From Candidatus Omnitrophota bacterium (GTDB lineage: Bacteria > Omnitrophota > Gorgyraeia > Gygaellales > Profunditerraquicolaceae), in the NCBI GenBank assembly GCA_041651035.1, contig JBAZKC010000001.1:1-60870 (forward strand): DNA of 60,870 nt. Reading direction: 5' to 3'. A program made the position numbers and the translations under genes. Positions 6,223 through 44,465 of this stretch are shown here, piece by piece. Numbering within the stretch: position 1 is the first letter of the stretch; every line of letters begins with the position of its first letter. Below the pieces are notes generated by a model. It had not been told where the DNA came from, made no database searches, and worked only from the letters and a program-made list of their open reading frames with translations.

Positions 6223-6939
6223 TTAATTATCCAACTTGGACCCGGAAAGAAGTTCTCTTGCCCCATTCTTATCTTGAATATATACTTCGGGGATAAATTC
6301 TATGGAATTGGGGATAAGACTGGCTATAACTTTCTTTATTCTTGCCTGCTGCGTTTCATTCTGAAGGTCAAAGATGGGATTCTGGCTGATATCGTTTAAT
6401 AAAAGAACAACTGGATCATGCGGAAATACAAAATCCTTTAAAATCTGCTTGATAAGGATATCTAAATAATCCGGCTTGTCCTTGAATACATCCACAGTAG
6501 TTTTAAAAGTTATCTTCCCCCAGTCTCCGGCAATCGTTTTATGCATGAGCGCGTAAACGGAAGAATATTTGATCATCTTAATTTCCCCGGGGGCTAATTT
6601 AACGGCTGTATTCATAATGACGGTAGAAAGTTCGGCGTGCTTGAATGTTTTTATTTCCTTGTGTATATCAATAGTCAGGAGGTCAAAAATATAGCCGCCG
6701 CGGACTCCGGGGATAGCGTTGACTATGCTGCGTTTTAAGAAATCCTCTATCGCCTCCCAGAGGATCTTTTCATCATCGCGGATAAAATTTAATGCCAGGA
6801 CATTACAGGCCTGGCCTTCGCGGATAGCTTTATATTGGCGGACTTTTTCCTCATTATGCCCGGTATAGGAAATTTCGTCAAAAAGCGGCATATGCTGGAA
6901 GAGGTTTGAATTCTGAAATCCAAAATCAATTAAATTCAT
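6223..6939 (-). CDS. Hypothetical protein
   Basis: The ORF is open to 7050, but that extension overlaps the rubrerythrin gene. The start is placed at MNLIDF (6939), 22 nt after the rubrerythrin stop. No family was recognised. Confidence 0.45.
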
Positions 6940-6961
6940 AAGGTTGCCTGGATTATCTTGC

Positions 6962-7540
6962 TTAATAATTCCCAGCCAGGACTTCATAAAATGCCTGAGG
7001 ATGCTTGCAGGCCGGGCATTCCGCGGGAGCCTCAATGCCCTCAAACACATAACCGCAATTAATGCAATGCCATTTTACCGGCGCCTTCTTTTTAAAGACT
7101 TCTCCGTCCGTAAGATTCTTGATCAATTTTCTGTATCTTGATTCATGGAAACGCTCAACCCTGGCTACCTGTTCAAAAGAGCGCGCGACATCCGCGAACC
7201 CTTCAGCTTTGGCGACCTCGGCGAAATCCTGATACAAGACCGTCCATTCTAAATTTTCTCCGGAAGCCGCTGCTTCCAGGTTGCTCTTTGTATCCTTTAT
7301 CGAACCTGCCGGATAGGCGGCGGTGATCTCCACGTCTCCGCCTTCAAGATACTTAAAGAAAACCTTAGCATGCTCTTTTTCGTTCTCGGCGGTTTCAATA
7401 AAAATATTGGCTATCTGCTCATAGCCCTCTTTTCTGGCCACGCTGGCAAAATAGGTGTACCTATTCCTTGCCTGCGATTCTCCGGCGAATGATTTCAAAA
7501 GATTCTGTTCTGTCTTTGTCCCTTTAATTGATTTTGCCAT
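6962..7540 (-). CDS. rbr: Rubrerythrin
   Basis: 192 aa. It has the ferritin-like diiron domain (TEQNLLKSFAGESQARNRYTYFA...ENEKEHAKVF) plus a C-terminal rubredoxin-like CINCG...CPACKHP. Confidence 0.9.
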   Translation of the reverse strand: MAKSIKGTKTEQNLLKSFAGESQARNRYTYFASVARKEGYEQIANIFIETAENEKEHAKVFFKYLEGGDVEITAAYPAGSIKDTKSNLEAAASGENLEWTVLYQDFAEVAKAEGFADVARSFEQVARVERFHESRYRKLIKNLTDGEVFKKKAPVKWHCINCGYVFEGIEAPAECPACKHPQAFYEVLAGNY

Positions 7541-7610
7541 CTTTTATCCTCCTTGCCCAGAGGGGCACACCGGCCTATCCGATAAGGCCGGGTGTAACTT
7601 TCCGTTTATC

Positions 7611-9341
7611 TTAACGTAATATTACGAAATTAAGCACCGCGCCCACAATAAGGCTTATGCCTATCATGATAGAAGTAGATTTAATCAGGCTTTTGAAACC
7701 CAATTCTTTCCATAAGACTATAAAAGTGGCTACACAGGGAAACGACACTGCTAATAAGGTTGCCGCGATAAATAATTGTTTGGCGGAAAGCCCCAAGGGC
7801 ATCAGCATGCCTACGGCAACATCCTTTCTTAAGAAGCCTATCACTAAAGCAACTACTGCTTCTTTGGGCAAACCGAATAAACCGTTAACTATCGGAGCAA
7901 ATACGCCGGTTACTATATCAAATACCTTAAGGTATAACAGGATATTTATCGCCATAACGCCGATAAGGACCACCGGTACCGCCTCTATCAGGAAACCTTT
8001 GATACGGGAATACAACTTATGCCCTAACATGTGCAGCGGCGGAAACCTATAAGGAGGGATCTCCAGCAGAAATTCAGGGCTATATCCTGTTAAGGCGCGG
8101 TTTAAGATCAATCCTAATATTACAACCAAAGAAAATAAAACCAGATACACTCCGCTTACATAAAATCCGCCGAATTTACCTAATAAACCAAAAATCATTG
8201 CCTGCAAAGGCACGCACGGCACGCCTATGGAAATAATAGTTGAGGCGATAAATCTTTCGCGCTTGGATTCTAAGACCCTGGTAGCTAAAATACCGGGGAC
8301 ATTGCAGCCGAAACCTAAAAGCACAGGGATGATCGCGTAACCATGCAGGCCCAGCCGGTGCAAAACGTTATCCAGCAATATCGCCAGGCGGGGCAAATAT
8401 CCTATATCTTCCAGGAGGCTTAAGATAAAATAAAATGACACGACGTATGGCAGCACCATACCGAATTCAATATACGGAGCCGTAGTCAACACGCCTAAAG
8501 ACTGTTTAAAATCTATCTTGCCGTTGATTAAATCGCCAATAAGCAAATGGAACCAGAATCCCTTTTCTTGCCAATGAAAAGTCAGTTTCTCCAACAGCGG
8601 CTGGTATAGATTGATAAAAACGGGGTCTGTTATCCTGCTGATGATCAGCTCGCCCACAAAACGCACGATCTTAAACGACGCGTAGATAACTCCTGCCGCG
8701 ATCAAGAAACCGGTCAGCGGCCTGACAGACGCGTCTTCCAGGGACTCTCTTAAGGTATGATGCCTGTGCTCCAGGCGCTGTACTTGCTCAACAATTTTGC
8801 CTATTTCCATCCAGCGCTCTTCATGCGCGAGCCTGCCCCTTACAACAGAAGTTGTTTCTTTTATCCGCTCGATCAACAATTTAACGCCTGTGCCGGTTAC
8901 CGCGCAAGTTGGGACAACCGGTACCCTTAAAAGCTCTTCTAACTTTACGGTATCAATATGGACCCCTCTATGGCTGGCATCATCGCACATATTCAAACAG
9001 ACGACCACCGGATATCCTTCTTCAATAAGCTGTAAAGTCAGGAGTAAATTTCTTTCCAGGTTAGTGGAATCCAGTATATTAATAACCGCCATTTCATTCC
9101 TGGGGCCTTCTTTTAATAAAGATACCGCTACTTCTTCCGCGCGGGAAGTCGGATCTAATGAATAAGCCCCGGGCAGGTCTATAACCTCTATTCTTTCCTC
9201 GCCTAAGCTTAAGTACCCCCTGGATATTTCTACTGTTGTACCGGGATAATTTGAAGAAATTACCTGTATACCGGTAAGGCGGGAAAAGACTACGCTTTTA
9301 CCGACATTAGGATTGCCTATTAAATAAACTTTCTTGATCAT
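7611..9341 (-). CDS. feoB: Ferrous iron transporter FeoB
   Basis: 576 aa. An N-terminal G-domain (GNPNVGKS, DLPG) is followed by a polytopic membrane domain. It overlaps feoA by 4 nt. Confidence 0.9.
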   Translation of the reverse strand: MIKKVYLIGNPNVGKSVVFSRLTGIQVISSNYPGTTVEISRGYLSLGEERIEVIDLPGAYSLDPTSRAEEVAVSLLKEGPRNEMAVINILDSTNLERNLLLTLQLIEEGYPVVVCLNMCDDASHRGVHIDTVKLEELLRVPVVPTCAVTGTGVKLLIERIKETTSVVRGRLAHEERWMEIGKIVEQVQRLEHRHHTLRESLEDASVRPLTGFLIAAGVIYASFKIVRFVGELIISRITDPVFINLYQPLLEKLTFHWQEKGFWFHLLIGDLINGKIDFKQSLGVLTTAPYIEFGMVLPYVVSFYFILSLLEDIGYLPRLAILLDNVLHRLGLHGYAIIPVLLGFGCNVPGILATRVLESKRERFIASTIISIGVPCVPLQAMIFGLLGKFGGFYVSGVYLVLFSLVVILGLILNRALTGYSPEFLLEIPPYRFPPLHMLGHKLYSRIKGFLIEAVPVVLIGVMAINILLYLKVFDIVTGVFAPIVNGLFGLPKEAVVALVIGFLRKDVAVGMLMPLGLSAKQLFIAATLLAVSFPCVATFIVLWKELGFKSLIKSTSIMIGISLIVGAVLNFVILR

Positions 9342-9571
9342 TCTGCCTCTATTATGACTTTTGCCGCCACGCCATGGCCTAAGGCTAAAATACTTCTGCC
9401 TGATTTGATCACCACCGGGCCCCTTAAACCGAGATGGCTAAGCTTGGTGATCTCTTTGCCTTTATACACACCCAGATTCATCAGCCTGCTCTTAAGGTTT
9501 GTGCCGCCTGAGATCTCTAAGATCCTGCCTTTATGATTTGCCTTCAGTTGCGCTAAGGATATTTTTTTCAT
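9338..9571 (-). CDS. feoA: FeoA family protein
   Basis: 77 aa SH3-like FeoA sequence (LAQLKANHKGRILEI...RLMNLGVYKGKEI) directly upstream of feoB. Confidence 0.8.
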   Translation of the reverse strand: MKKISLAQLKANHKGRILEISGGTNLKSRLMNLGVYKGKEITKLSHLGLRGPVVIKSGRSILALGHGVAAKVIIEAE

Positions 9572-9587
9572 TTCTGCCTATAAAATT

Positions 9588-9621
9588 AAACCCCGCACTT
9601 TAAATTCAAAGCGCGGGGTTT
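9588..9621 (-). terminator. Intrinsic terminator after the 9645-10325 gene
   Basis: On the minus strand AAACCCCGC...GCGGGGTTT forms a 9-bp stem followed by AATTTTAT. Confidence 0.65.
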
Positions 9622-9644
9622 AATCGGAACTTATACAGCAAGTG

Positions 9645-10325
9645 CTATTTCTTTGACTTCAATTTTTCTATTAACTCATTGACAAACTTCCCGGCGGCGT
9701 CTTTACAACCCAAGCCAAAAGCCAAAGCAAAGCCCAGGCCGATAGAAGCTAACGCTATACTCAATGTCAACTCTGTTATCTGTATACCGATCTTAAGCTG
9801 CTCCAAGGCTACAAACACAGCAAAGAGGCTTATTATAACCTCTACGATCTTACTTAAGATCTTGCCTTGCGATAAACCCGCGTTACTAGCTGCAGTTTGA
9901 ACAATATTCTTTAATAAAGTGGCGATAAACATGCCTAATATCAAAATAAATATAGCGGCAATGACATTAGGTATATAAGCGATTACCTGCCTTAATAAAT
10001 CCGCGGCAACCGTTAAACCCACAGCATTGATGGCGACCATAACAGTAACTAAAAGCGCCAGCCAATAGCAGATTATACCGATCAACTCGGAAAGAGAGTA
10101 ATTAATACCACCTTTTTCAAGCAATTTGTCCAATTCGATGTTAACGGAGAGCTCATCAAGCTTCAGGATCCTTAGGCCCTTTGTGACTATCGCCTTGATA
10201 AGTTTGGAAATGAGCCAACCTACGATAAGTATGGCCAGCACTAACAGAATACTTACCAAGAATTGACCGATTTGGCTAAGCACAACCCTGGCCGGTTCCA
10301 GTAAAACTATTTGCCAACTACTCAT
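9645..10325 (-). CDS. Small-conductance mechanosensitive-channel-like membrane protein (conserved TM-helix repeats)
   Basis: 226 aa with about 5 TM helices. It shows the repeated helix pattern seen in TM_helix/MscS-related proteins. Confidence 0.55.
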   Translation of the reverse strand: MSSWQIVLLEPARVVLSQIGQFLVSILLVLAILIVGWLISKLIKAIVTKGLRILKLDELSVNIELDKLLEKGGINYSLSELIGIICYWLALLVTVMVAINAVGLTVAADLLRQVIAYIPNVIAAIFILILGMFIATLLKNIVQTAASNAGLSQGKILSKIVEVIISLFAVFVALEQLKIGIQITELTLSIALASIGLGFALAFGLGCKDAAGKFVNELIEKLKSKK

Positions 10326-22197: not shown

Positions 22198-23754
22198 TTA
22201 TTTTCCACACCGGGAAAAATAGCCTCCGGTGAGAGCATCAAGAGAAGCGGTAAGTTCTTCCAGCCTCAACTCTTTCTCCAATCTTTTTCTTTTGTCTTCA
22301 ATTGATAAATTATCCAGCTCCAACTTCACCCGCCGACGCTCAAAATACAGCTTAGTTACCTCATCCAGAATATCGCCGCGCAGCTCGACCATCAGCCGCG
22401 AACGGACATCAATGGAAGTCTGGTCCTCGTTCCAGATGAGCTCGCTTAAATCCCAACTTAACGCTATGTCCCAACCGCTGGACATATCTTCCGGCCCCTC
22501 ATATACATAATGCGTGGTCGCGCTTGTATATATTTCATAGTTGGTATTCCTGGAATTATCTAAACCCACTGTCAGTTTGGGTAAGATCGCTTTCATCTGG
22601 GCCTTTTTTCTCCACTGTTTGATCTTATCCGGCTCAACCTCCGCATACTTAATTGCCGCCTCCTGAACTTCATTAATTCCAGGCTCATCTTTATAATACG
22701 CCGCTGCCGTGATAATATCTTTCTGCTTATCTCCGCTGAAATGGCTGATATCCGCCTTAAACAACCCTTTATCGCAGGCAGCGTAAATATTACCCTGCTT
22801 ATCTAAATCAAGGTACCTGACATCCTGAGCAACCAGGCCTAATGATAATTCCTGCCAACGGCTGTTCCTATACGTAAAAATGCCGGATTTTGCGGCCGCG
22901 TAAATAATCGAATCAGAAGAAATCAATAATAATTTTACATCTCTATTAAGCAAACCGTAATCAGACATCGGGCCCCAGGACTTGCCCTTATCCTGGCTCT
23001 TGTGAACTCCTTTCTTAGAAGCAATATAAAGATAATTTAAATTATTCGGGTCTATGCTTATATATCTTATATCTGAAAATTGTTCTTCTCCATCCCGGTC
23101 TTCGCCTGGCCGATCTTCATCACCGCCATCTTCCGTAGGATGCGCAACAAATATTCTTTCCCAGTGTTTGCCGGCATCCTGCGTTTTAAATATGCCATCC
23201 AGGCAAGCAGCATAAATAGAATCCGACTCGCTGATATTATAAGCAATAGCTAATATCTGGCTATTGCCGAGCTTGCCCGCTTCTTTACACCAGGACCGGC
23301 CGTTATCTTTACTGGTAAATAGCCCCGCCTTTGTGCCTAAAAATATATGCCCGGGAAAAACCGCCAGCGCGGTACATTCTCTCTCTAAATAGCTCTTGCC
23401 CTGGAAAATCCTGCTCCATCTATTGCCTTCATTAATACTATAAAATAGCCCGTTAGCGGTAGCAGCATATATAGTTTTTTTATTCGCGGCGCTGAATAAT
23501 AAAGAATTTACCGCTTTGCTCTGTCCCTTAATTAATAAAATATTTCTCCAACTCTTGCCGGCGTCCTCGGTCTTAAGAACCCCGTTGCCAGAACCGATAT
23601 AAATAACACGGGGATTATCGGGCTGGACCAATACTGTTCTTATATCGGCATTGCCTTCTCCTATATCTTGCCAGGATATTTCTTCAGCTACTGCCAGAAT
23701 CAAAGATCCTAAAATCCAAAAACTTAATAACCCAACAACACCAATCTTTTTCAT
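22198..23754 (-). CDS. Secreted Asp-box (BNR/sortilin-like) beta-propeller protein with C-terminal coiled-coil region
   Basis: 518 aa with a signal peptide (MKKIGVVGLLSFWILGSLILAVA). Repeated SxDxGxSW-type boxes are present (TEDAGKSW, SKDNGRSW, TQDAGKHW, SQDKGKSW). There is an acidic insert (EDGGDEDRPGEDRDGEE) and a heptad-like C-terminus. A good SD (AAGGGAGGTG) precedes the start. Confidence 0.6.
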   Translation of the reverse strand: MKKIGVVGLLSFWILGSLILAVAEEISWQDIGEGNADIRTVLVQPDNPRVIYIGSGNGVLKTEDAGKSWRNILLIKGQSKAVNSLLFSAANKKTIYAATANGLFYSINEGNRWSRIFQGKSYLERECTALAVFPGHIFLGTKAGLFTSKDNGRSWCKEAGKLGNSQILAIAYNISESDSIYAACLDGIFKTQDAGKHWERIFVAHPTEDGGDEDRPGEDRDGEEQFSDIRYISIDPNNLNYLYIASKKGVHKSQDKGKSWGPMSDYGLLNRDVKLLLISSDSIIYAAAKSGIFTYRNSRWQELSLGLVAQDVRYLDLDKQGNIYAACDKGLFKADISHFSGDKQKDIITAAAYYKDEPGINEVQEAAIKYAEVEPDKIKQWRKKAQMKAILPKLTVGLDNSRNTNYEIYTSATTHYVYEGPEDMSSGWDIALSWDLSELIWNEDQTSIDVRSRLMVELRGDILDEVTKLYFERRRVKLELDNLSIEDKRKRLEKELRLEELTASLDALTGGYFSRCGK

Positions 23755-23907
23755 CCCGCACCTCCCTTTCTACTTTAATAGACGCAGGAGGCAAAATAAT
23801 CTAACAAGAATTCTTAAAGAAGATATTAGTCTCGTGGTTTAAAATAAGGGTTAGGCAATTAGATAAAACAGGCTGGCAATTACGGTCAGAGAAACGGGCT
23901 AAATAAT

Positions 23908-23940
23908 GGGGACGGTTCTGTCAAAGATAGAACCGTCCCC
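23908..23940 (-). terminator. Stem-loop (12 bp) immediately after the CHAT gene; member of a repeated hairpin family
   Basis: GGGGACGGTTCT (23908-23919) pairs with AGAACCGTCCCC (23929-23940). On the minus strand ATTATTT follows. The same arm sequence recurs at 35855-35889. Confidence 0.6.
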
Positions 23941-23951
23941 TAGTTTTGGGT

Positions 23952-26147
23952 TCAATCCAAACTCAAAAGCTCCTGCTTTACTCTTTGGTAATCCGGAGTA
24001 TCTATCCGGGTATATATCTCTTGCGCCTGCCGGAGATACTCCCTGGCTTTGTTCTTTTGCCCTTTCCTCTTATATAGAGAACCTAGATTATTATAAGCAG
24101 CAGCTGATTCTAAAGGCGCGTCTATATCTTTACAAACTGAAAGGGCCTGGTAAAAATATTTCTCCGCTTCGGTAAAATTATCTATTTCTACATATAATTC
24201 ACCGATCATATTATAATCCGAGGCTATATTAGGCATATTACCCTGTTTTTGATCTATCTTTAACCCCTGAAAATAAAAATCCAGCGCTTTCTGGTATTCT
24301 TTCTGATAAGAATAGACCTCGCCGACATTAAAATAGTAATCGCTTAATTCACGGGCCAGCTTAAGCCTGTTGAATAACCTGAAACTCTTATCGTAGAATT
24401 CCTTAGCGGTAGCAAGATCATCTTTATTCAGGAACAAAAGCCCGAGATTAAAATAATCACATGCCAGATTATACCTGTGCTTGTATGAGTATTGCCTTTC
24501 CCGGTTAATTTCTGAACTCTTAGTAAGCAGCTCAAGGGCTTTATCATCTTCTCCCTTATCCATATACCAAACCGCCAGCTTCCTTAAGGCAATAGCCTCG
24601 TTTAACCTATCCTTATTCCCCTTGCTTAAAGCTATTGATTTATTATAGAACTCAAAGGCCTTGGCGTATTCTCCGTATAGATGATAGATCCAGCCAATGC
24701 CGATATAAGCAGAACTTAAATTCTTTTTATCACGCCTTTTCTCGCTGAAGAACGCGTAATCAAAATAATATTTCAGGGCATTATCTTTATCTCCTAACCT
24801 CTGATAGGTATCTGCCAGCAAAGGATAAATTGCCAGGAATGAAGGTTCATTCTTTATTATGCGGCCGGATTGCGAAATGACTCTTTGATTCTGGCCTCCC
24901 CGGAATGACCTCTGGGATTCCAGGAATAAACGATAGGTATTAGGGTTTATAGTAGGCAGCCAAATATACAGGCAGATACAGACAGATACAAACACTACTG
25001 CCGCAAAGAACCAGGCCAGCCGTTTCCTATGCAAAGAAATATTTATTCTCGGCTTATCGCTCTTCGGCTTTACTTTTGGCCGGAATAATATAAAATTGGG
25101 GTCTCCGTAAAGAAGATAACTTGCCCAATGCATAGGCATTATACCGTATTCACTAATTAACTTAAGGCGGCCCAATCTGATACTCTCGCCCATAGACTTG
25201 CCGGAAATCAACTGCGCGTAGAATTCTTTTGAAAAAGACAGGCTGACCGGGTCTTCTATCTTGCGTATCGCCCCGATATAATGACGGACACCGGAAAACA
25301 GGAATGCTGACGCCAGGCTGTAATTGTTCTCCTGGTAATCCGCTTCCATCGGTTTTGCGGTGTTTACAGCGGAATGACAGGCGTTAGAGAATATTAAGGC
25401 GGGTAAAGAAACGGCTGAACCCATGGCAAGGATATCCTGGATAGTAAACTTAGAGTCGCTTAGGACCCAGCCGCTATTATCGGGGTTATCCGCCTCATAT
25501 TCACAGTGCCCGGCAAAGTGCACGATATCGTAATCGCAGAGGTTTTTCTTTACATACATCTTATCGATATACGTGGATTTAAAATCGATATGCACATTAT
25601 TGCTTTTGCGGTCAAATTGATTTTTGATATTTACGCCTTCTAAGTAAGCGGATTTTAAATCATTGGTGGGATTGACCATTATCAGCATTTTAAGAACACC
25701 GGCGAAACTACGGTACCGGGGCCGGCTTACCGGCTCCCTGGTCCTGATCACCCTGCCTATATTAAAAGCAAGGCATAAGAAGCTCCTTCCATCATAGAGG
25801 AGTTCCCAGGGAATGTTAATTAACTCTTCATCCGTAGAAAGTATCAGGCTGGAGATTTGAGAGGATTTTAATTTTTCCTTAACTGACGGGGTAAGCAGGT
25901 GATCCCAGAGCAGCCGGCCGGATTTGATCAAACCCTTGATCAGTTCCTTGTCATAAGCGCTATTTTTACCTGCCTTATTTAATATAAAGGAAATTTCCTG
26001 GCATAATTTATCTATTTCCGCGGATGAAACAGCGCACTGGCTATAATGCCGTAATGTCGAAGCAAGTTCCAGACGCTCAAAAACACTCATTTTGAGCGTC
26101 TGTCCCTGCTTTAATATTTCTAAGACCAGGGTACCGGCTTCCTGCAT
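23952..26147 (-). CDS. CHAT (caspase-like protease) domain - single TM helix - TPR repeat protein
   Basis: 731 aa. The CHAT hallmarks are IVHFAGHCEY (His), LIFSNACHSA (Cys) and WASYLLYGDP. A basic stretch KVKPKSDKPRINISLHRKR precedes the TM helix LAWFFAAVVFVSVCICLYIWL. About 320 aa of TPR-like repeats follow (repeated A..Y/F...L patterns). Confidence 0.8.
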   Translation of the reverse strand: MQEAGTLVLEILKQGQTLKMSVFERLELASTLRHYSQCAVSSAEIDKLCQEISFILNKAGKNSAYDKELIKGLIKSGRLLWDHLLTPSVKEKLKSSQISSLILSTDEELINIPWELLYDGRSFLCLAFNIGRVIRTREPVSRPRYRSFAGVLKMLIMVNPTNDLKSAYLEGVNIKNQFDRKSNNVHIDFKSTYIDKMYVKKNLCDYDIVHFAGHCEYEADNPDNSGWVLSDSKFTIQDILAMGSAVSLPALIFSNACHSAVNTAKPMEADYQENNYSLASAFLFSGVRHYIGAIRKIEDPVSLSFSKEFYAQLISGKSMGESIRLGRLKLISEYGIMPMHWASYLLYGDPNFILFRPKVKPKSDKPRINISLHRKRLAWFFAAVVFVSVCICLYIWLPTINPNTYRLFLESQRSFRGGQNQRVISQSGRIIKNEPSFLAIYPLLADTYQRLGDKDNALKYYFDYAFFSEKRRDKKNLSSAYIGIGWIYHLYGEYAKAFEFYNKSIALSKGNKDRLNEAIALRKLAVWYMDKGEDDKALELLTKSSEINRERQYSYKHRYNLACDYFNLGLLFLNKDDLATAKEFYDKSFRLFNRLKLARELSDYYFNVGEVYSYQKEYQKALDFYFQGLKIDQKQGNMPNIASDYNMIGELYVEIDNFTEAEKYFYQALSVCKDIDAPLESAAAYNNLGSLYKRKGQKNKAREYLRQAQEIYTRIDTPDYQRVKQELLSLD

Positions 26148-26159
26148 TATATAATCTGA

Positions 26160-26867
26160 TTAGTTACTTATATCCAACAATATCGAGGCAAGCTTATTCT
26201 CAAAAACAGATACCTCAATCCTGTAATTACCCAACAGGATGTGGCCGAAGGTAACTGAACCTGTATCAGTAAGGTAGGATTCCAATTCCAGGTCATCTTT
26301 AAGAAGAGTGACTCTTAGATCTTTAACTATATTCTGGGTCTGTTTTTCTTTAACCACAACCATGAGAATAAAAGCGCCCTCCCCTTTATTCTCTATCTTA
26401 GCCTCTACTTTTATATTCTGAAGGTCTTTTAGAATAGTCACTCCCTCTTTAAAATCTTTTATCAAGCGGCCGCGTAAAAGAGGAGCGGGCACTAACTCCC
26501 GGCCCACCAGGACGTCTCCGGTAGTATTCAATATCTCCAGCAACTTTCCTTTAGCCCTTAAGAGTATCTCTAAAATAGGAGCTCCGCATTCAGCGGTAAA
26601 GAGCGAACCCTTGATCTTGTCAAGTAATTCGCCAGGTACCTCTTTTTTATCTACTGTTTTCATCCCTAAGCCAAGAACCACAGACTGAGCGCAATCATCA
26701 CAACTTAGCAAATGAGCTTTAAGATGGTCATTCTCTTCCTTAGACAGGCGGCCTTCCAGGAAACAGGCAATAGCCTCTTCATCAGGATGCACCCCCTCAA
26801 CCTTGCCTAATCCTGACTTCCATTTCTTATAGACCAGCTTAACCAGGCTCTCGAATCTATCCTGCAT
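26160..26867 (-). CDS. Putative anti-sigma factor with zf-HC2 (ZAS) motif, no TM segment
   Basis: 235 aa located immediately after the ECF sigma gene. It has HLLSCDDC (HxxxCxxC). No hydrophobic stretch long enough for a TM helix is present. Confidence 0.6.
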   Translation of the reverse strand: MQDRFESLVKLVYKKWKSGLGKVEGVHPDEEAIACFLEGRLSKEENDHLKAHLLSCDDCAQSVVLGLGMKTVDKKEVPGELLDKIKGSLFTAECGAPILEILLRAKGKLLEILNTTGDVLVGRELVPAPLLRGRLIKDFKEGVTILKDLQNIKVEAKIENKGEGAFILMVVVKEKQTQNIVKDLRVTLLKDDLELESYLTDTGSVTFGHILLGNYRIEVSVFENKLASILLDISN

Positions 26868-26903
26868 ATGTATACTCTCCCCAATATAATAGACGTACCA
26901 GTA

Positions 26904-27512
26904 TCAGAAATCTAACAAAAAACCTTTACTTTTAAAGCACTCTTTTAATTTATTAATAAGGCGTGATTTTTGCATATCTATGGCGCCGCGTGAAAGCTTG
27001 AGATGATCTTTTAATTCCTCAAGCCTTATCCCCCTCTTCATATGCAGTTCTAAGAAGTATTTATCATCGCTGTCTAATCTTTCAATACAGTCTGTTAAAC
27101 TCCCAAGCTTTTCTTCATAACTAAGCATATCAGGAACAGGCTCAGCGCCGTCTACAAGCAGATTTTTCAGGTTAAGATCGTCATCCGGTTCTTGGCTATC
27201 GAGATAAACGGCGGGTTTCATCTTACGGATATAGTCTATCGTAAAGTTAATGGTAACCTGCCTTAACCAACTGGCAAGGCTGCATCCGTTTATTGCTTTA
27301 AAACTTCTTAATTTCTTAGAATTATCCTTGAGTAGAGAGCAGAAGATTTCCTGGAATACATCGTTGATGTGGTCTTGCGCGGAAGCGTAACCTTTTACAT
27401 TAAAAACATTGTGGATATAGTTATATATCAGGCGGGAATATTTACTTAAGAATTCATCCCAGGCTGCCTTGTCTCCTTTGACGCACCTCTGGACAAATTC
27501 CAAGTCATCCAT
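26904..27512 (-). CDS. ECF-type RNA polymerase sigma-70 family factor
   Basis: 202 aa. Region 2 is LSKYSRLIYNYI...DVFQEIFCSL and region 4 is the HTH LEELKDHLKLSRGAIDMQKSRLINKLK. Confidence 0.85.
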   Translation of the reverse strand: MDDLEFVQRCVKGDKAAWDEFLSKYSRLIYNYIHNVFNVKGYASAQDHINDVFQEIFCSLLKDNSKKLRSFKAINGCSLASWLRQVTINFTIDYIRKMKPAVYLDSQEPDDDLNLKNLLVDGAEPVPDMLSYEEKLGSLTDCIERLDSDDKYFLELHMKRGIRLEELKDHLKLSRGAIDMQKSRLINKLKECFKSKGFLLDF

Positions 27513-27521
27513 AATGGAATT

Positions 27522-27549
27522 ATTATACCATTAAACCTTGTAAGTCAAA
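27522..27549 (-). promoter_or_regulatory. Sigma-70-like promoter placing the ECF sigma ATG about 9 nt after the -10 (near-leaderless)
   Basis: On the minus strand TTGACT (27548-27543) or TTTGAC precedes TATAAT (27527-22) by 15-16 nt. Then aattccatt and the ATG (27512) follow. No SD is present. Confidence 0.5.
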
Positions 27550-27560
27550 ACAAATAATTA

Positions 27561-27595
27561 GGGACACCCTTCCTGCCAATCAGGAGAGTGTCCCC
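27561..27595 (-). repeat. Imperfect hairpin sharing the GGGACACCCT arm with the hppA terminator
   Basis: GGGACA (27561-27566) pairs with TGTCCC (27589-27594) and TCCTG (27571-27575) with CAGGA (27581-27585), with an internal loop between the helices. The first 10 nt are identical to 27621-27630. Confidence 0.6.
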
Positions 27596-27613
27596 ATAAG
27601 AAATCAAAAGCTT

Positions 27614-27655
27614 AAAAAAAGGGACACCCTTAGCTTTAGCAAGTTGGGTGTCCCT
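27614..27655 (-). terminator. Intrinsic terminator of hppA
   Basis: The minus strand reads AGGGACACCC-15 nt-GGGTGTCCCT followed by TTTTTTT. It starts 5 nt after the hppA stop. Confidence 0.8.
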
Positions 27656-35527: not shown

Positions 35528-35716
35528 TTAGGCTGCTTTTAACCTCTGCCTTTCATCGACTTGGCCAAGATGAATATGGCAGTAAGCTTCGTGATTGTAG
35601 ATACTTAAGATATGTTTGCAATGCGGAAACCTGCACTTTCTACCCTTAGGTGAAGATTTTATTTTTTTAATAGCTGCTCCTTGTGAGAAAACATCGGTAT
35701 AATTTTGTACATTCAT
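35528..35716 (-). CDS. Small Cys/His-rich (zinc-finger-like) protein, possibly a coupling upstream ORF
   Basis: 62 aa with CRFPHCKHILSIYNHEAYCHIH. Its stop lies 5 nt before the helicase ATG. Neither this ORF nor the helicase has a recognisable SD. Confidence 0.45.
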   Translation of the reverse strand: MNVQNYTDVFSQGAAIKKIKSSPKGRKCRFPHCKHILSIYNHEAYCHIHLGQVDERQRLKAA

Positions 35717-35738
35717 TTAAAAATGAATGTACAAAATT
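35701..35738 (-). promoter_or_regulatory. Perfect 18-bp hairpin occluding the start codon of the small ORF
   Basis: AATTTTGTACATTCATTT (35701-35718) pairs with AAATGAATGTACAAAATT (35721-35738) across a 2-nt spacer. On the minus-strand RNA the 3' arm contains the AUG (35716-35714) and the next four codons. Confidence 0.7.
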
Positions 35739-35777
35739 AAAAAGCCGTAAAGGTTAGTTATCTTCCCTTTACGGCTT
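35731..35777 (-). terminator. Intrinsic terminator/attenuator inside the 5' leader
   Basis: The minus strand reads AAGCCGTAAAGG-12 nt-CCTTTACGGCTT, a perfect 12-bp stem (35777-35742), followed by TTTTTAATTTTG. Confidence 0.7.
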
Positions 35778-35854: not shown

Positions 35855-35889
35855 GGGGACGGTTCTGTCCTTAGGACAGAACCGTCCCC
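35855..35889 (-). terminator. 16-bp stem-loop immediately after phoU; same family as 23908-23940
   Basis: GGGGACGGTTCTGTCC (35855-35870) pairs with GGACAGAACCGTCCCC (35874-35889) around a TTA loop. TGTCTTTGTT follows on the minus strand. Confidence 0.6.
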
Positions 35890-42181: not shown

Positions 42182-42245
42182 CCCTAAAATTATCGCAAGA
42201 GAATTTTAGGGTAGATTATGAGGAGGGATAGCATGGCTATCCCTC
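42182..42245 (-). promoter_or_regulatory. Two consecutive perfect 10-bp hairpins between purL and purF
   Basis: CCCTAAAATT (42182-42191) pairs with AATTTTAGGG (42202-42211). GAGGGATAGC (42223-42232) pairs with GCTATCCCTC (42236-42245), and this second hairpin overlaps the purL stop codon. Confidence 0.5.
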
Positions 42246-44465
42246 AATCTTCCTCTTTAACGACCCGCCCCACTCTTCATATAAATCTTCCAAGGGCAGA
42301 CAAATCAATTCTTTCGCCCCGTTTAAAATCCTTAAAACCTGCCCTCCGGTCTTGCCGATAACGCGAAAAGGGGCTTTAAATTTCAAAGCTATCTTCCTGA
42401 TCTTTTCCACAGAAGCTTTATCGCAAGAAATAATGATCCTTGACTGGGACTCGCCAAAAAATAAAGCATCTGACCTGATATTATAATCCAAATTATCAAT
42501 ATTGGCTCCAATAATTTTATTCTTATTTGAAATACAGCATTCAGCCAGGGCTACAGCCAGCCCGCCTTCAGAACAATCATGGGCCGAATTAACCAAGCCC
42601 TTCTCTATCGCTTCCAGAGCTGCCTTTTGGACAGCCTGCTCTAACTTCAGGTCTATATGAGGCACGCTGCCTTTTATCATATTATGCGCCTCTGCCAGGT
42701 ACTCGCTTGCCCCTAATTCTTCTTTAGAGCGGCCTAAAAGTATGACCATATCTCCGGACTGTTTAAAATTCTGAGTGCAAACTCTATCCACATGATTAAC
42801 AATACCGATCATGCCTATGGTAGGAGTAGGATTAATGCTAGATTGCGGGCTTTCATTATAGAGAGAAACGTTACCGCTTACTACCGCTACATTAAATGAC
42901 TTGCAGGCATCCCGTATCCCTTCTATGCAATTCTTAAAATACCAGAAACTTTCCGGTTTTTCGGGATTACCAAAATTAAGGCAATCCGTAACTGCTGCCG
43001 GACGAGCCCCTGAACAAACAAGATTCCTGGCTGCTTCTGCTATAGCGATCTGCGCGCCTTTATAGGGATCAAGAAAACAATAGCGGCTATTACAATCGGT
43101 AGTAGCAGCTATAGCCTTATCAGTTCCTTTTAACCTCAACACCGCGGCATCCGAACCAGGTAATACTATGGTATTAACCTGCACCATATGGTCGTATTGT
43201 TCATATACCCAGGCCTTATTAGCAATAGACGGAACTGCCAAGAGTTTTAACAACGCCTTATTATAATCCTTGGGCTCAGGGATATTCTTAAGCGCGAACT
43301 TAGTTGCCTCTTTTAAATGCGCGGGCTTTTTATAAGGCATGTCGTATACCGGGGCCCTGGTTAAAGAATGCGCTTTTATGCGGGCTACTATCTTGCCGTT
43401 ATCCCTGATGGTTACTGATTTATCATTAGTGACTTTCCCAATAACAGAGGCGCAAAGCCCCCACTTCAGGAATATTTTCTTTACCTGTTCTTCCTTGCCT
43501 TTCTTTACGCAAACAAGCATCCTCTCCTGGGATTCAGACATCATTAATTCCCAGGGCTCCATATTCTCTTCGCGCCTGGGCACTGCCTGCAATTCCACAT
43601 CCATGCCTGAATTGCCCGCTGATGCCATTTCGCTCGTGCAACAGGTAAGTCCGGCAGCTCCCATATCTTTGATCCCCGCGACATAGCCTGTATTGATGGC
43701 CTCCAGCGTAGCCTCTATCAAACACTTCTCGGTAAATGGATCGCCTATCTGGACTGTAGGCCTTTTTTCTTCGCCTTCTTTAAATTCATGCGAAGCCAGT
43801 ATGCTGCATCCGCCTATCCCGTCCCGCCCCGTGCTTGAACCTACATACATGATCGAATTCCCCAGGCCAACTGCGCGCGCCCGGACCAGTTCAGTCTGTT
43901 TGGCTATGCCGATACACATCGCGTTAACCAGGCAATTACCGGTGTAGCTCTTATCAAAATAGATCTCTCCTCCGACAGTAGGCACCCCCACGCAATTCCC
44001 ATAGAACTGGATACCTTCTATAACTCCCCTAAAGATATACTTATTATACGTTTGAGTAAGCGGGCCGAAACGCAGAGAATCCAACAATGCGATTGGCCTG
44101 GCTCCGGCAGTGAATATATCCCTTATAATACCGCCTACTCCCGTAGCAGCGCCTTGCTTAGGCTCAACCTGAGAGGGATGATTATGGCTCTCCATTTTAA
44201 ATATTATGGCTAAACCATCGACGATAATGCCTCCCGCGTCTTCTCCTATTAATGTCTTGTATTTACCTGTCTTAGGCAGGATTTTCAGCCATTTACGGGA
44301 ACGCGGGTATCCGCAATGCTCAGACCATTCCACTGAAAACATCGCCAGCTCCGTATCCGAAGGCTTACGCTTTAAGATCTTTAAAATATGCCGGTATTCC
44401 TGGTCGCTTAAACCGAGCGAGCGGTATGCGCCTGGTTTCATCGTTATCTTTTGACCTCCAGCCAT
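42237..44465 (-). CDS. purL: Phosphoribosylformylglycinamidine synthase subunit PurL
   Basis: 742 aa small-type PurL ([18 protein letters not shown]). Confidence 0.9.

Follow-up and report, generated by a model that had tools for sequence, protein, structure and literature searches.

A predicted sigma-control module in Candidatus Omnitrophota that links an ECF sigma factor together with a soluble zinc-binding anti-sigma factor to a membrane-spanning CHAT protein

A conserved gene trio

The DNA analyzed here (the window) comprises positions 1 to 60,870 of contig JBAZKC010000001.1 from a Candidatus Omnitrophota bacterium (assembly GCA_041651035.1), and our subject is a cluster of four genes within it. 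In order of transcription, these encode a 202-aa sigma factor of the extracytoplasmic function (ECF) type with TIGR02937 and Sigma70_r2 matches (26904-27512), a 235-aa anti-sigma factor of the zinc-binding anti-sigma (ZAS) type built of an N-terminal anti-sigma domain, a linker and a C-terminal beta-sandwich (26160-26867), a 731-aa protein that joins a CHAT domain (PF12770), one transmembrane helix and TPR_12 repeats (23952-26147), and a 518-aa BNR/Asp-box propeller protein, predicted to be secreted, with a C-terminal helical tail (22198-23754). All four genes, and the promoters and hairpins of the cluster described below, lie on the minus strand. A first-pass annotation made from the nucleotide sequence had placed four genes here, and the open reading frames (ORFs) that we recovered agree with it exactly in position.

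Metagenome-assembled genomes (MAGs) and metagenomes are the source of the homologues, both for the CHAT protein (more than 120 clusters, with 61-76% identity along the full length) and for the anti-sigma factor (55-70% identity), and the source organisms that are named are labelled Candidatus Omnitrophota, a group with, to our knowledge, few or no cultured representatives. A contig scan with one window protein as the query recovered five close relatives only. The close relatives are fully syntenic, with the order H+-pyrophosphatase (PPase), sigma, anti-sigma, CHAT, propeller, trx, pta and ack. Closely related genomes retain gene order anyway, so synteny at this distance says little by itself.

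A larger sample consisted of 80 metagenome loci retrieved with a CHAT-domain alignment, most of them from the close family at 54-78% identity. The anti-sigma gene stands upstream of CHAT in every one of the 72 assessable loci, no more than 120 nt away in 63 of them, and the sigma gene precedes this pair in 56 of 57 (52 passed the distance filter, and four more that lay slightly beyond its cut-off were counted from the individual rows). The exception without a sigma gene (L023) has only a partial anti-sigma match. A more distant sample was drawn from members of the anti-sigma family that are 21-30% identical to the window protein. Five fully read loci of this sample maintain the order sigma, anti-sigma, CHAT between unrelated flanking genes, and a sixth contig carries sigma and anti-sigma genes followed by an unannotated gene truncated by the end of the contig. 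Four of these loci (L009, L010, L011 and L013) show an overlap of 4-26 nt between the anti-sigma and CHAT genes. OGP55724.1, whose MAG bears the label Deltaproteobacteria bacterium RBG_13_61_14, belongs to the 90% cluster of the L009 CHAT protein; on NCBI's label, therefore, the trio is not confined to Omnitrophota.

The propeller gene was found no more than 2.5 kb downstream in 27 of 37 assessable loci and was absent over that distance in 10. The conserved unit is three genes, and the fourth is variable. The first-pass annotation had proposed a four-gene module. Its association of sigma, anti-sigma and CHAT stood throughout the loci examined, while the propeller proved to be a separate unit that is missing from this distance in some loci and replaced in distant relatives by a cellulase or an alpha-2-macroglobulin, and for this reason we define the module as three genes. 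These three genes very probably form one functional module for sigma control.

Features of the three proteins

The sigma product matches the TIGR02937 sigma70-ECF model at 70 bits (cut-off 42.9) over residues 17-192 and Sigma70_r2 at 26.5 bits (cut-off 24, E 5.5e-6). Its length of about 200 aa, the presence of only the sigma2 and sigma4 regions and a score above the superfamily cut-off place it among the ECF (group IV) sigma factors, as had been proposed from the sequence at first reading. Its nearest solved structure is SigW (5wuq, E 9e-6). All NCBIfam equivalog matches of the sigma product fall far under their cut-offs, and with the type III-E CASP-σ model NF041236 it reaches 23.8 bits, where the cut-off is 100.

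The anti-sigma product contains the motif HLLSCDDC, which supplies H52, C56 and C59; with an upstream cysteine in the N-terminal helical domain, C35, these residues are the putative zinc ligands of a ZAS-type H-x3-C-x2-C site. Among 121 family representatives only four residues are 100% invariant, the three residues of the motif and Arg132, so that Arg132 is the only one outside the zinc site. C35 is invariant in the close-family alignment, and at least 90% of the distant alignment has Cys at the corresponding position. The window protein scores 22.0 bits against zf-HC2 (PF13490, gathering score 22.2), many of its homologues carry a precomputed PF13490 match, and its best NCBIfam match is RsrA, a weak one (18.9 bits). 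No 19-residue window of the protein exceeds a Kyte-Doolittle (KD) hydropathy of 1.2, which indicates that the anti-sigma factor has no membrane helix. Both parts of the earlier claim, a ZAS motif and the lack of a membrane span, are thus borne out.

When 1.84 billion representatives were searched with a profile, the anti-sigma family appeared in 1,111 clusters (50% identity representatives) at E <= 1e-3, 428 of which reach E <= 1e-10. Among 150 listed clusters about 120 measure 205-255 aa, and the others are mostly shorter fragments. Nearly all listed members that include the N-terminal region have HxxxCxxC near residue 50, and a membrane helix (KD threshold 1.6) is missing in all but a few listed members.

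The most conserved stretch in the close family is the linker between the two domains, TTGDxLVGQELVPAPVLRSR. In the window protein it reads TTGD…P-A-P-L-L-R132-G-R, with the Arg132 codon at 26472..26474, and across the family Arg132 stands within P-x-x-[VL]-L-R-[SG]-[R]. An AlphaFold2 (AF2) model gives a helical N-terminal part at low to medium confidence (predicted local distance difference test, pLDDT, about 35-72), as would suit an anti-sigma domain whose folding takes place on its partner, and a confident C-terminal beta-sandwich (residues 143-233, pLDDT 75-89); residues 132-135 between them have pLDDT values below 50. Some family members carry weak precomputed CarboxypepD_reg or SpaA matches. 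A fold search with the model returned only generic Ig-like and prealbumin-like sandwiches (E >3e-3) and no informative relative, and a search of the anti-sigma profile against solved structures gave a marginal match to DdvA (8rlz_A, E 0.97). Peptidases of MEROPS clan CD are specific for the P1 residue, and separase, metacaspases, gingipain R and MALT1 cleave after Arg. On the strength of its absolute conservation, the small residue that follows it and its place in a flexible inter-domain linker, we tentatively regard Arg132 as a candidate P1 residue, although its role as the scissile residue is somewhat doubtful.

The CHAT protein matches PF12770 at 106.6 bits (cut-off 24, E 2e-30) over residues 76-349 (25101..25922), and this match to a caspase-fold, clan CD domain spans model positions 3-289 of 289 and is therefore full-length. 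The partner proteins of the distant loci score 135-145 bits. The motif VHFAGH holds H210 (codon 25518-25520) and H214 (25506-25508), and SNACHS holds C257 (25377-25379). All 35 close and all 7 distant sequences compared retain these three residues, the distant partners being only 34-59% identical. The His and Cys are separated by 43-47 residues here and by 45 in DdvA (H862/C907). Results therefore agree with the first-pass proposal of an N-terminal CHAT domain with a His/Cys dyad. The 34-59% identical partners have in common the motifs IPWE[LI]L, YDxxH[FY]AGH and WASYxLYGxP, the invariant Cys (C257), which usually lies in SN[AS]C, and a Ser two residues further on (S259). All of them possess an N-terminal region of about 100 aa and, near residue 375, a hydrophobic helix that is less pronounced in L011 (KD 1.58), and they vary in the part after the helix, which consists of TPR, of no recognisable domain, or of TPR with a CsgG-like domain. 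A PDB search with the single CHAT-domain sequence gave no match, and one with a full-length profile of the protein found TPR proteins only. A seven-sequence CHAT profile returned weak matches only, led by DdvA (8rot_B, E 0.008) and then SAVED-CHAT (8tl0, E 0.13).

A single transmembrane helix is assigned to residues 377-399 (24951..25019), directly after the basic cluster KVKPKSDKPRINISLHRKR; hydropathy analysis detects one helix at 377-395 (KD 2.59), and the AF2 model has a helix at 371-396. Nine K/R residues occur in the 25 residues before the helix and four after it. Counted over 15 residues on each side, K+R is higher on the N-terminal side of the helix in 120 of 120 close homologues (mean 5.8 versus 1.8), and an N-terminal hydrophobic segment was found in none of these 120. 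The L009 partner (6710-9934) is a 1,074-aa protein that fuses a class III adenylate/guanylate cyclase, CHAT, the helix, TPR and a CsgG-like domain, with the Guanylate_cyc match (residues 56-215, E 1e-21) N-terminal to CHAT. Class III cyclases require cytoplasmic nucleotide triphosphates, and a cyclase on the CHAT side of the helix is thus independent support for a cytoplasmic CHAT domain. The charge bias and the cyclase both favor the layout that had been suggested before (basic cluster, single helix, TPR, cytoplasmic CHAT), in which the CHAT domain is predicted to be in the same compartment as the sigma and anti-sigma factors. The L009 fusion further suggests that the protease module is linked to cyclic-nucleotide signalling. 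The TPR array, about residues 402-731 (23952..24944), is a candidate sensor predicted to lie outside the cytoplasmic membrane. Its TPR_12 match (E 5.6e-34) extends over about residues 440-730, and the AF2 model, built on a 33-sequence alignment, exceeds pLDDT 90 over most of residues 400-720.

Promoters, variable downstream genes and surroundings

Alignment of the region upstream of the propeller gene in five genomes revealed an island of identity, GTTAGATT-N13-CGTCTATT, about 25 nt before the ATG and amid diverged surroundings. The spacing geometry and the CGTC element at -10 are typical of ECF promoters. The strict motif GTTAGATT-N13-CGTCTAT has 2 matches in the 60.9-kb window against 0.01 expected. 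One, P1, corresponds to an ECF-type promoter (GTTAGATT-N13-CGTCTA) at 26890..26916, about 22 nt before the anti-sigma ATG, and overlaps the last codons and the stop codon of the sigma gene. The other, P2, is an ECF-type promoter of the same form at 23779..23805, about 25 nt before the propeller ATG. P1 would drive the anti-sigma–CHAT pair.

In 91 loci (757 kb) the strict motif has 112 matches, against 0-2 in shuffled sequence; the matches come from related loci and are hence not independent. Anti-sigma genes follow 66 of the 112 and propeller genes 28, while Y1 transposase genes (4), cellulase or alpha-2-macroglobulin genes (3) and other ORFs (2) follow a few more, and 9 have no qualifying ORF downstream. 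The motif persists where the neighbouring intergenic DNA has diverged. Relatives retain the motif at both positions. The P1 position is kept in L001-L004, L007, L011 and L012, and variants occur in L009, L010 and L013. In L011 the motif precedes both the anti-sigma and the alpha-2-macroglobulin gene; in L010 and L013 it precedes the cellulase gene, with a TTTAGAAA variant before the anti-sigma gene; and in L009 the sigma/anti-sigma junction has CGTCTATT with GCAAGA at -35, and no motif was found upstream of the porin gene. A one-mismatch candidate, GTTAAA-N14-CGTCTATT at 43228-43251 (minus strand), lies inside a PurL-like gene (42237-44465), is probably due to chance and was rejected.

As a separate observation, IS200-like Y1 transposase genes of 160-165 aa (PF01797) adjoin the module in some genomes. 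They were found in L004 (4961-5452, minus strand), L031, L046 and L067, and also in L007 (11834-12538); in four loci they are preceded by GTTAGA-N15-CGTCTA, as are the anti-sigma and propeller genes. These transposases are possibly REP-associated (repetitive extragenic palindromic).

The sigma gene has a promoter of the housekeeping type (27519..27548), with TTGACT at 27543-27548 and TGgTATAAT, in which TATAAT occupies 27522-27527. It ends 9 nt upstream of the ATG, and there is no Shine-Dalgarno sequence. A TA[TAC]AAT box occurs 12-16 nt upstream of the sigma ATG in 53 of 63 loci, and the conserved TATAAT, often extended to TGnTATAAT, ends 6-9 nt from the ATG, likewise with no Shine-Dalgarno sequence. 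A box so near the start codon indicates that the sigma mRNA is probably leaderless or near-leaderless and is made from a housekeeping-type promoter. Because the ECF-type motif does not precede the sigma gene, the latter does not seem to be autoregulated. Two unannotated genes of 97 and 258 aa, neither with a Pfam match, lie directly upstream of the sigma gene in the cellulase-linked clade, across a 12-nt gap (L010 4040-5294, L013 222-1472), and these may be extra members of the operon.

The propeller protein matches Sortilin-Vps10/BNR (PF15902) at 50.6 bits (cut-off 33) and scores 97.7 against the NCBIfam F510_1955 glycosylhydrolase family, under its cut-off of 175. Its N-terminus is signal-like and ends LAVA|EE, so the signal-bearing Asp-box propeller named by the first-pass annotation was recovered. 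Residues of about 350-518 (22198-22700, ~170 aa) have no family match, are conserved in the L004 and L007 homologues and end in a charged helical segment …RRRVKLELDNLSIEDKRKRLEKELRLEELTASLD…. The gene has its own Shine-Dalgarno sequence, GGGAGGTG, downstream of P2, and is a separate transcription unit. It had been suggested to be either the output or a ligand partner of the module; P2 is of the same ECF-type as the promoter of the anti-sigma–CHAT pair, which fits the first of these roles, and we predict that the propeller is an output of the sigma regulon. The gene that follows CHAT in the distant loci encodes a 1,273-aa GH5 cellulase (L010, L013), an alpha-2-macroglobulin (L011) or a FadL/Toluene_X porin (L009). 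In L004 two small secreted genes (9212-10285) are inserted between CHAT and propeller; one encodes a 187-aa putative lipoprotein and the other a 138-aa chagasin-family cysteine-peptidase inhibitor (Inhibitor_I42, E 1.3e-19).

Two GGGACAC…GTGTCCC hairpins (27555..27655) stand after the PPase gene and mark the upstream boundary of the module. One, at 27615-27655 (-20.1 kcal/mol, z -4.2), is followed by U7 and is a terminator; the second lies within 27555-27610 (-26.3 kcal/mol, z -5.3). After the CHAT gene a terminator-like and REP-like hairpin, GGGGACGGTTCT…AGAACCGTCCCC, is found at 23908..23940 (-24.4 kcal/mol, z -6.1). The cluster had been described as lying between strong terminators. The hairpins do fold well, but the upstream ones terminate the preceding PPase gene. 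All hairpins of the module are of a repeated GGGGAC…GTCCCC palindrome type that recurs elsewhere in the window (35855-35889) and in related genomes. Palindromes of the forms GGGGACGGTTCT…AGAACCGTCCCC and GGGGACAC…GTGTCCCC also occur at gene ends in L001, L004, L007 and L009 as well as here, and these repeated palindromes look like REP-type elements that double as terminators.

The remaining genes of the window belong to core metabolism and include glutamate synthase, type III glutamine synthetase, CTP synthase, carbamoyl-phosphate synthase, PurL, PurF, Pta–Ack, thioredoxin, FabF and H+-PPase. The window has no CRISPR array, no Cas genes and no Rfam match, and a PADLOC scan of it gave only generic TPR models and a sub-threshold BovA match (E 0.006). 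The locus is chromosomal backbone and not a defence island. At 35700-35739 an intergenic, perfect 19-nt inverted repeat (TAATTTTGTACATTCATTT / AAATGAATGTACAAAATTA, 2-nt spacer) looks like an operator, and a 12-nt inverted repeat (35742-35777) adjoins it.

Proposed sigma control and its relation to known systems

On balance, we consider it somewhat more probable than not that the ECF sigma factor is controlled by cytoplasmic cleavage of its anti-sigma factor by the CHAT domain and not by regulated intramembrane proteolysis (RIP). The sigma factor would be made constitutively from its housekeeping-type promoter, probably on a leaderless mRNA, and would be held inactive by the N-terminal zinc-binding domain of the soluble 235-aa anti-sigma factor. 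The single-pass CHAT protein would direct its CHAT domain toward the cytoplasm and its C-terminal TPR array toward the periplasm, where a cue bound by the array may activate CHAT, most simply by induced proximity or dimerisation. Active CHAT would then cut the anti-sigma linker, probably after Arg132 (…P-A-P-L-L-R|G-R…), and sever the C-terminal beta-sandwich, a possible docking domain, from the anti-sigma domain. General proteases would remove the remaining fragment, and the freed sigma factor would transcribe the GTTAGATT-N13-CGTCTAT promoters of the propeller gene, as output, and of the anti-sigma–CHAT pair, as a negative feedback that resets the switch. We favor a proteolytic reading because the dyad is invariant, because the CHAT partner is constant while the outputs vary, and because the linker Arg is invariant.

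Several observations weigh against this proposal. We infer from sequence features the binding and cleavage of the anti-sigma factor by CHAT, the cleavage site and the mode of activation, and the reading of the motif by this particular sigma factor from position and co-occurrence. The CHAT gene lies within a sigma-dependent transcription unit, so its product could be an output and not a regulator. The zf-HC2 score of the anti-sigma factor is marginally under the gathering score, and a ZAS motif could by itself act as a redox switch, as in RsrA. Arg132 could alternatively be a structural or sigma-contacting residue. Two positions ahead of the catalytic Cys stands Asn or His, as opposed to the Asp of metacaspases and MALT1, and an Arg specificity is therefore unsupported from that position. 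Lastly, the CHAT half of the AF2 model is poor (pLDDT 30-60), too weak to judge the fold, the dyad geometry or the S1 pocket.

These points bear on several rival explanations. The CHAT protein might act without proteolysis, as a scaffold that binds the beta-sandwich and keeps the sigma/anti-sigma complex at the membrane until a periplasmic cue frees the sigma factor uncut. The strict linkage and the overlapping genes do suggest a stoichiometric complex, and dyad mutants of DdvA, whose active site is described as incomplete, have no phenotype in unperturbed cells (PMC11506125); but a His/Cys pair that is invariant across 34-59% identical partners is not expected of a pure scaffold, the linker Arg is likewise invariant, and we regard such a tether or partner switch as unlikely. 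An equally improbable scheme, in our estimate, is a thiol switch like that of RsrA/SigR, with oxidation of the zinc site freeing the sigma factor and CHAT a co-transcribed regulon member that has other substrates. The invariance of HxxxCxxC and C35, the weak RsrA match (18.9 bits) of the anti-sigma factor as its best in NCBIfam and the place of CHAT downstream of the sigma-type promoter P1 would all fit it. However, anti-sigma factors of the RsrA type measure about 100 aa and have neither the additional conserved linker nor the beta-sandwich, the CHAT partner is retained where the output genes differ (propeller, cellulase, alpha-2-macroglobulin), and many ZAS proteins are not redox-sensitive.

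CHAT might also have another target, either the sigma factor itself, as has been suggested for ECF54, or its own basic juxtamembrane linker, whose cleavage would release a soluble active protease in a cytoplasmic counterpart of the DdvA model. Such targets have parallels: proteolytic control without an anti-sigma factor has been proposed from CHAT gene context for ECF54 (PMC8999054), the DdvA model includes self-cleavage in trans at the linker beside the membrane helix (PMC11506125), and the helix of the present CHAT protein comes directly after a basic cluster. Nevertheless, an anti-sigma factor that is dedicated, strictly linked and equipped with an invariant linker Arg makes a better candidate for the substrate, and the juxtamembrane segment is poorly conserved (x-rich consensus), which together make this quite unlikely. 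That the module is an anti-phage defence system akin to Craspase or DdvA, with immunity genes turned on by the sigma factor, is very improbable. The characterised CHAT/sigma couples are all defence-linked, and the sigma factor has a weak match to the CASP-σ model of type III-E, but that score is far under the cut-off; the absence of CRISPR, Cas and Rfam matches from the window and the PADLOC result led us to reject this reading, the locus sits among core-metabolism genes in a stable backbone whose order is shared between genomes, and the predicted outputs are secreted envelope proteins.

Taken more broadly, cleavage of a soluble ZAS anti-sigma factor at an invariant Arg by a membrane CHAT protein with a periplasmic sensor (TPR or other) may be a widespread and undescribed relative of Craspase and DdvA that has a housekeeping role outside defence and occurs in Omnitrophota and one or more further lineages, a wider proposal that is quite possible but that we hold with some doubt. 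If cleavage proceeds as proposed, it would constitute a third general route by which envelope signals reach ECF sigma factors, in addition to intramembrane proteolysis and to partner switching or phosphorylation, with a single cytoplasmic cut in place of the site-1/site-2 cascade, and CHAT proteases would be ordinary transmembrane signal transducers, beyond CRISPR and CBASS (cyclic oligonucleotide-based antiphage signalling) immunity. The system is compact (three genes, a defined promoter, the candidate Arg132 and a dyad) and testable in a heterologous host; it would give a first handle on gene regulation in Omnitrophota and has a potential use as an orthogonal protease-gated transcription switch.

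No described mechanistic link from CHAT to a TM-less ZAS anti-sigma factor was known to the first-pass annotation, whose claim of novelty was overstated. Release of an ECF sigma factor by a CHAT protease has been documented in Craspase (PMC10028731) and proposed for DdvA (PMC11506125), and CHAT proteins appear in the gene context of ECF54 (PMC8999054). In the first case the TPR-CHAT protein Csx29 cleaves soluble Csx30, a binder and inhibitor of the ECF-like CASP-σ (PMC10028731); in the second, DdvA of M. xanthus combines a ZAS anti-sigma domain with a periplasmic TPR-CHAT part and is proposed to cleave itself before RseP acts (PMC11506125). CalpL/CalpT/CalpS and SAVED-CHAT/PCaspase/PCc-σ are further couples of protease and sigma factor (bioRxiv 10.1101/2023.06.23.546230). 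A full-text literature search returned no paper on a split arrangement of soluble ZAS anti-sigma factor and CHAT–TM–sensor protein, and no account of such sigma regulation in Omnitrophota.

DdvA/DdvS resembles the present module in that a zinc-binding (CHCC) anti-sigma domain holds an ECF sigma factor whose release is proposed to occur by proteolysis, and in that a caspase-fold CHAT domain with a His/Cys dyad, TPR repeats and one membrane helix are parts of a common signalling unit. DdvA, however, is one polypeptide of the order ZAS–TM–TPR–CHAT with a periplasmic CHAT and a proposed site-1-type self-cleavage before RseP, whereas the module described here divides these parts between two genes, with a separate soluble anti-sigma factor that has a beta-sandwich and no helix and with a CHAT–TM–TPR order that puts CHAT on the K/R-rich, predicted cytoplasmic side, and would need no intramembrane step. 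The DdvA regulon is a CBASS/CRISPR island, while the outputs predicted here are secreted envelope proteins. As in the scheme proposed here, canonical RIP (RseA/DegS/RseP; RsiW/PrsW/RasP) leads from an extracytoplasmic cue through anti-sigma proteolysis to a free ECF sigma factor, and its regulon includes the anti-sigma factor as negative feedback. In RIP the anti-sigma factor is a membrane-spanning protein that site-1 and then site-2 proteases cut, whereas here it is the protease that spans the membrane, the anti-sigma hydropathy maximum being 1.2 in the window protein and below 1.6 in nearly all representatives.

In Craspase (Cas7-11–Csx29; PMC10028731, PMC9825189) a cytoplasmic CHAT cuts a soluble sigma inhibitor between two domains and so lifts the inhibition of an ECF-like sigma factor, as is proposed here. 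It differs in that it is activated by target RNA on Cas7-11 and not through a membrane-spanning sensor, that Csx29 is soluble, has its TPR at the N-terminus and cleaves after Met or Leu, and that Csx30 is not a ZAS protein; no similarity of the anti-sigma factor to Csx30 was detected, and the window offers no array, no Cas genes, no PADLOC defence match and an NF041236 score of 23.8 against 100. The CalpL–CalpT–CalpS and SAVED-CHAT→PCaspase→PCc-σ (type III-B) systems resemble our proposed scheme in that signal-activated proteases cleave an anti-sigma-like protein or act on a sigma factor of the same operon. They are, in contrast, activated by cyclic oligoadenylate via SAVED, all of their components are soluble and defence-linked, and CalpL is a Lon-type protease and not a CHAT protein. 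ECF54 of Actinobacteria is similar in that CHAT proteins adjoin the ECF sigma gene and proteolytic control is proposed; it is presented as having no anti-sigma factor (PMC8999054; PMC7826278), and it occurs in another phylum. Comparison with these systems indicates that the module resembles known couples of protease and sigma factor in its logic and is a member of none, and that what is new here is a membrane-spanning, non-defence, three-gene form with a readable promoter and regulon.

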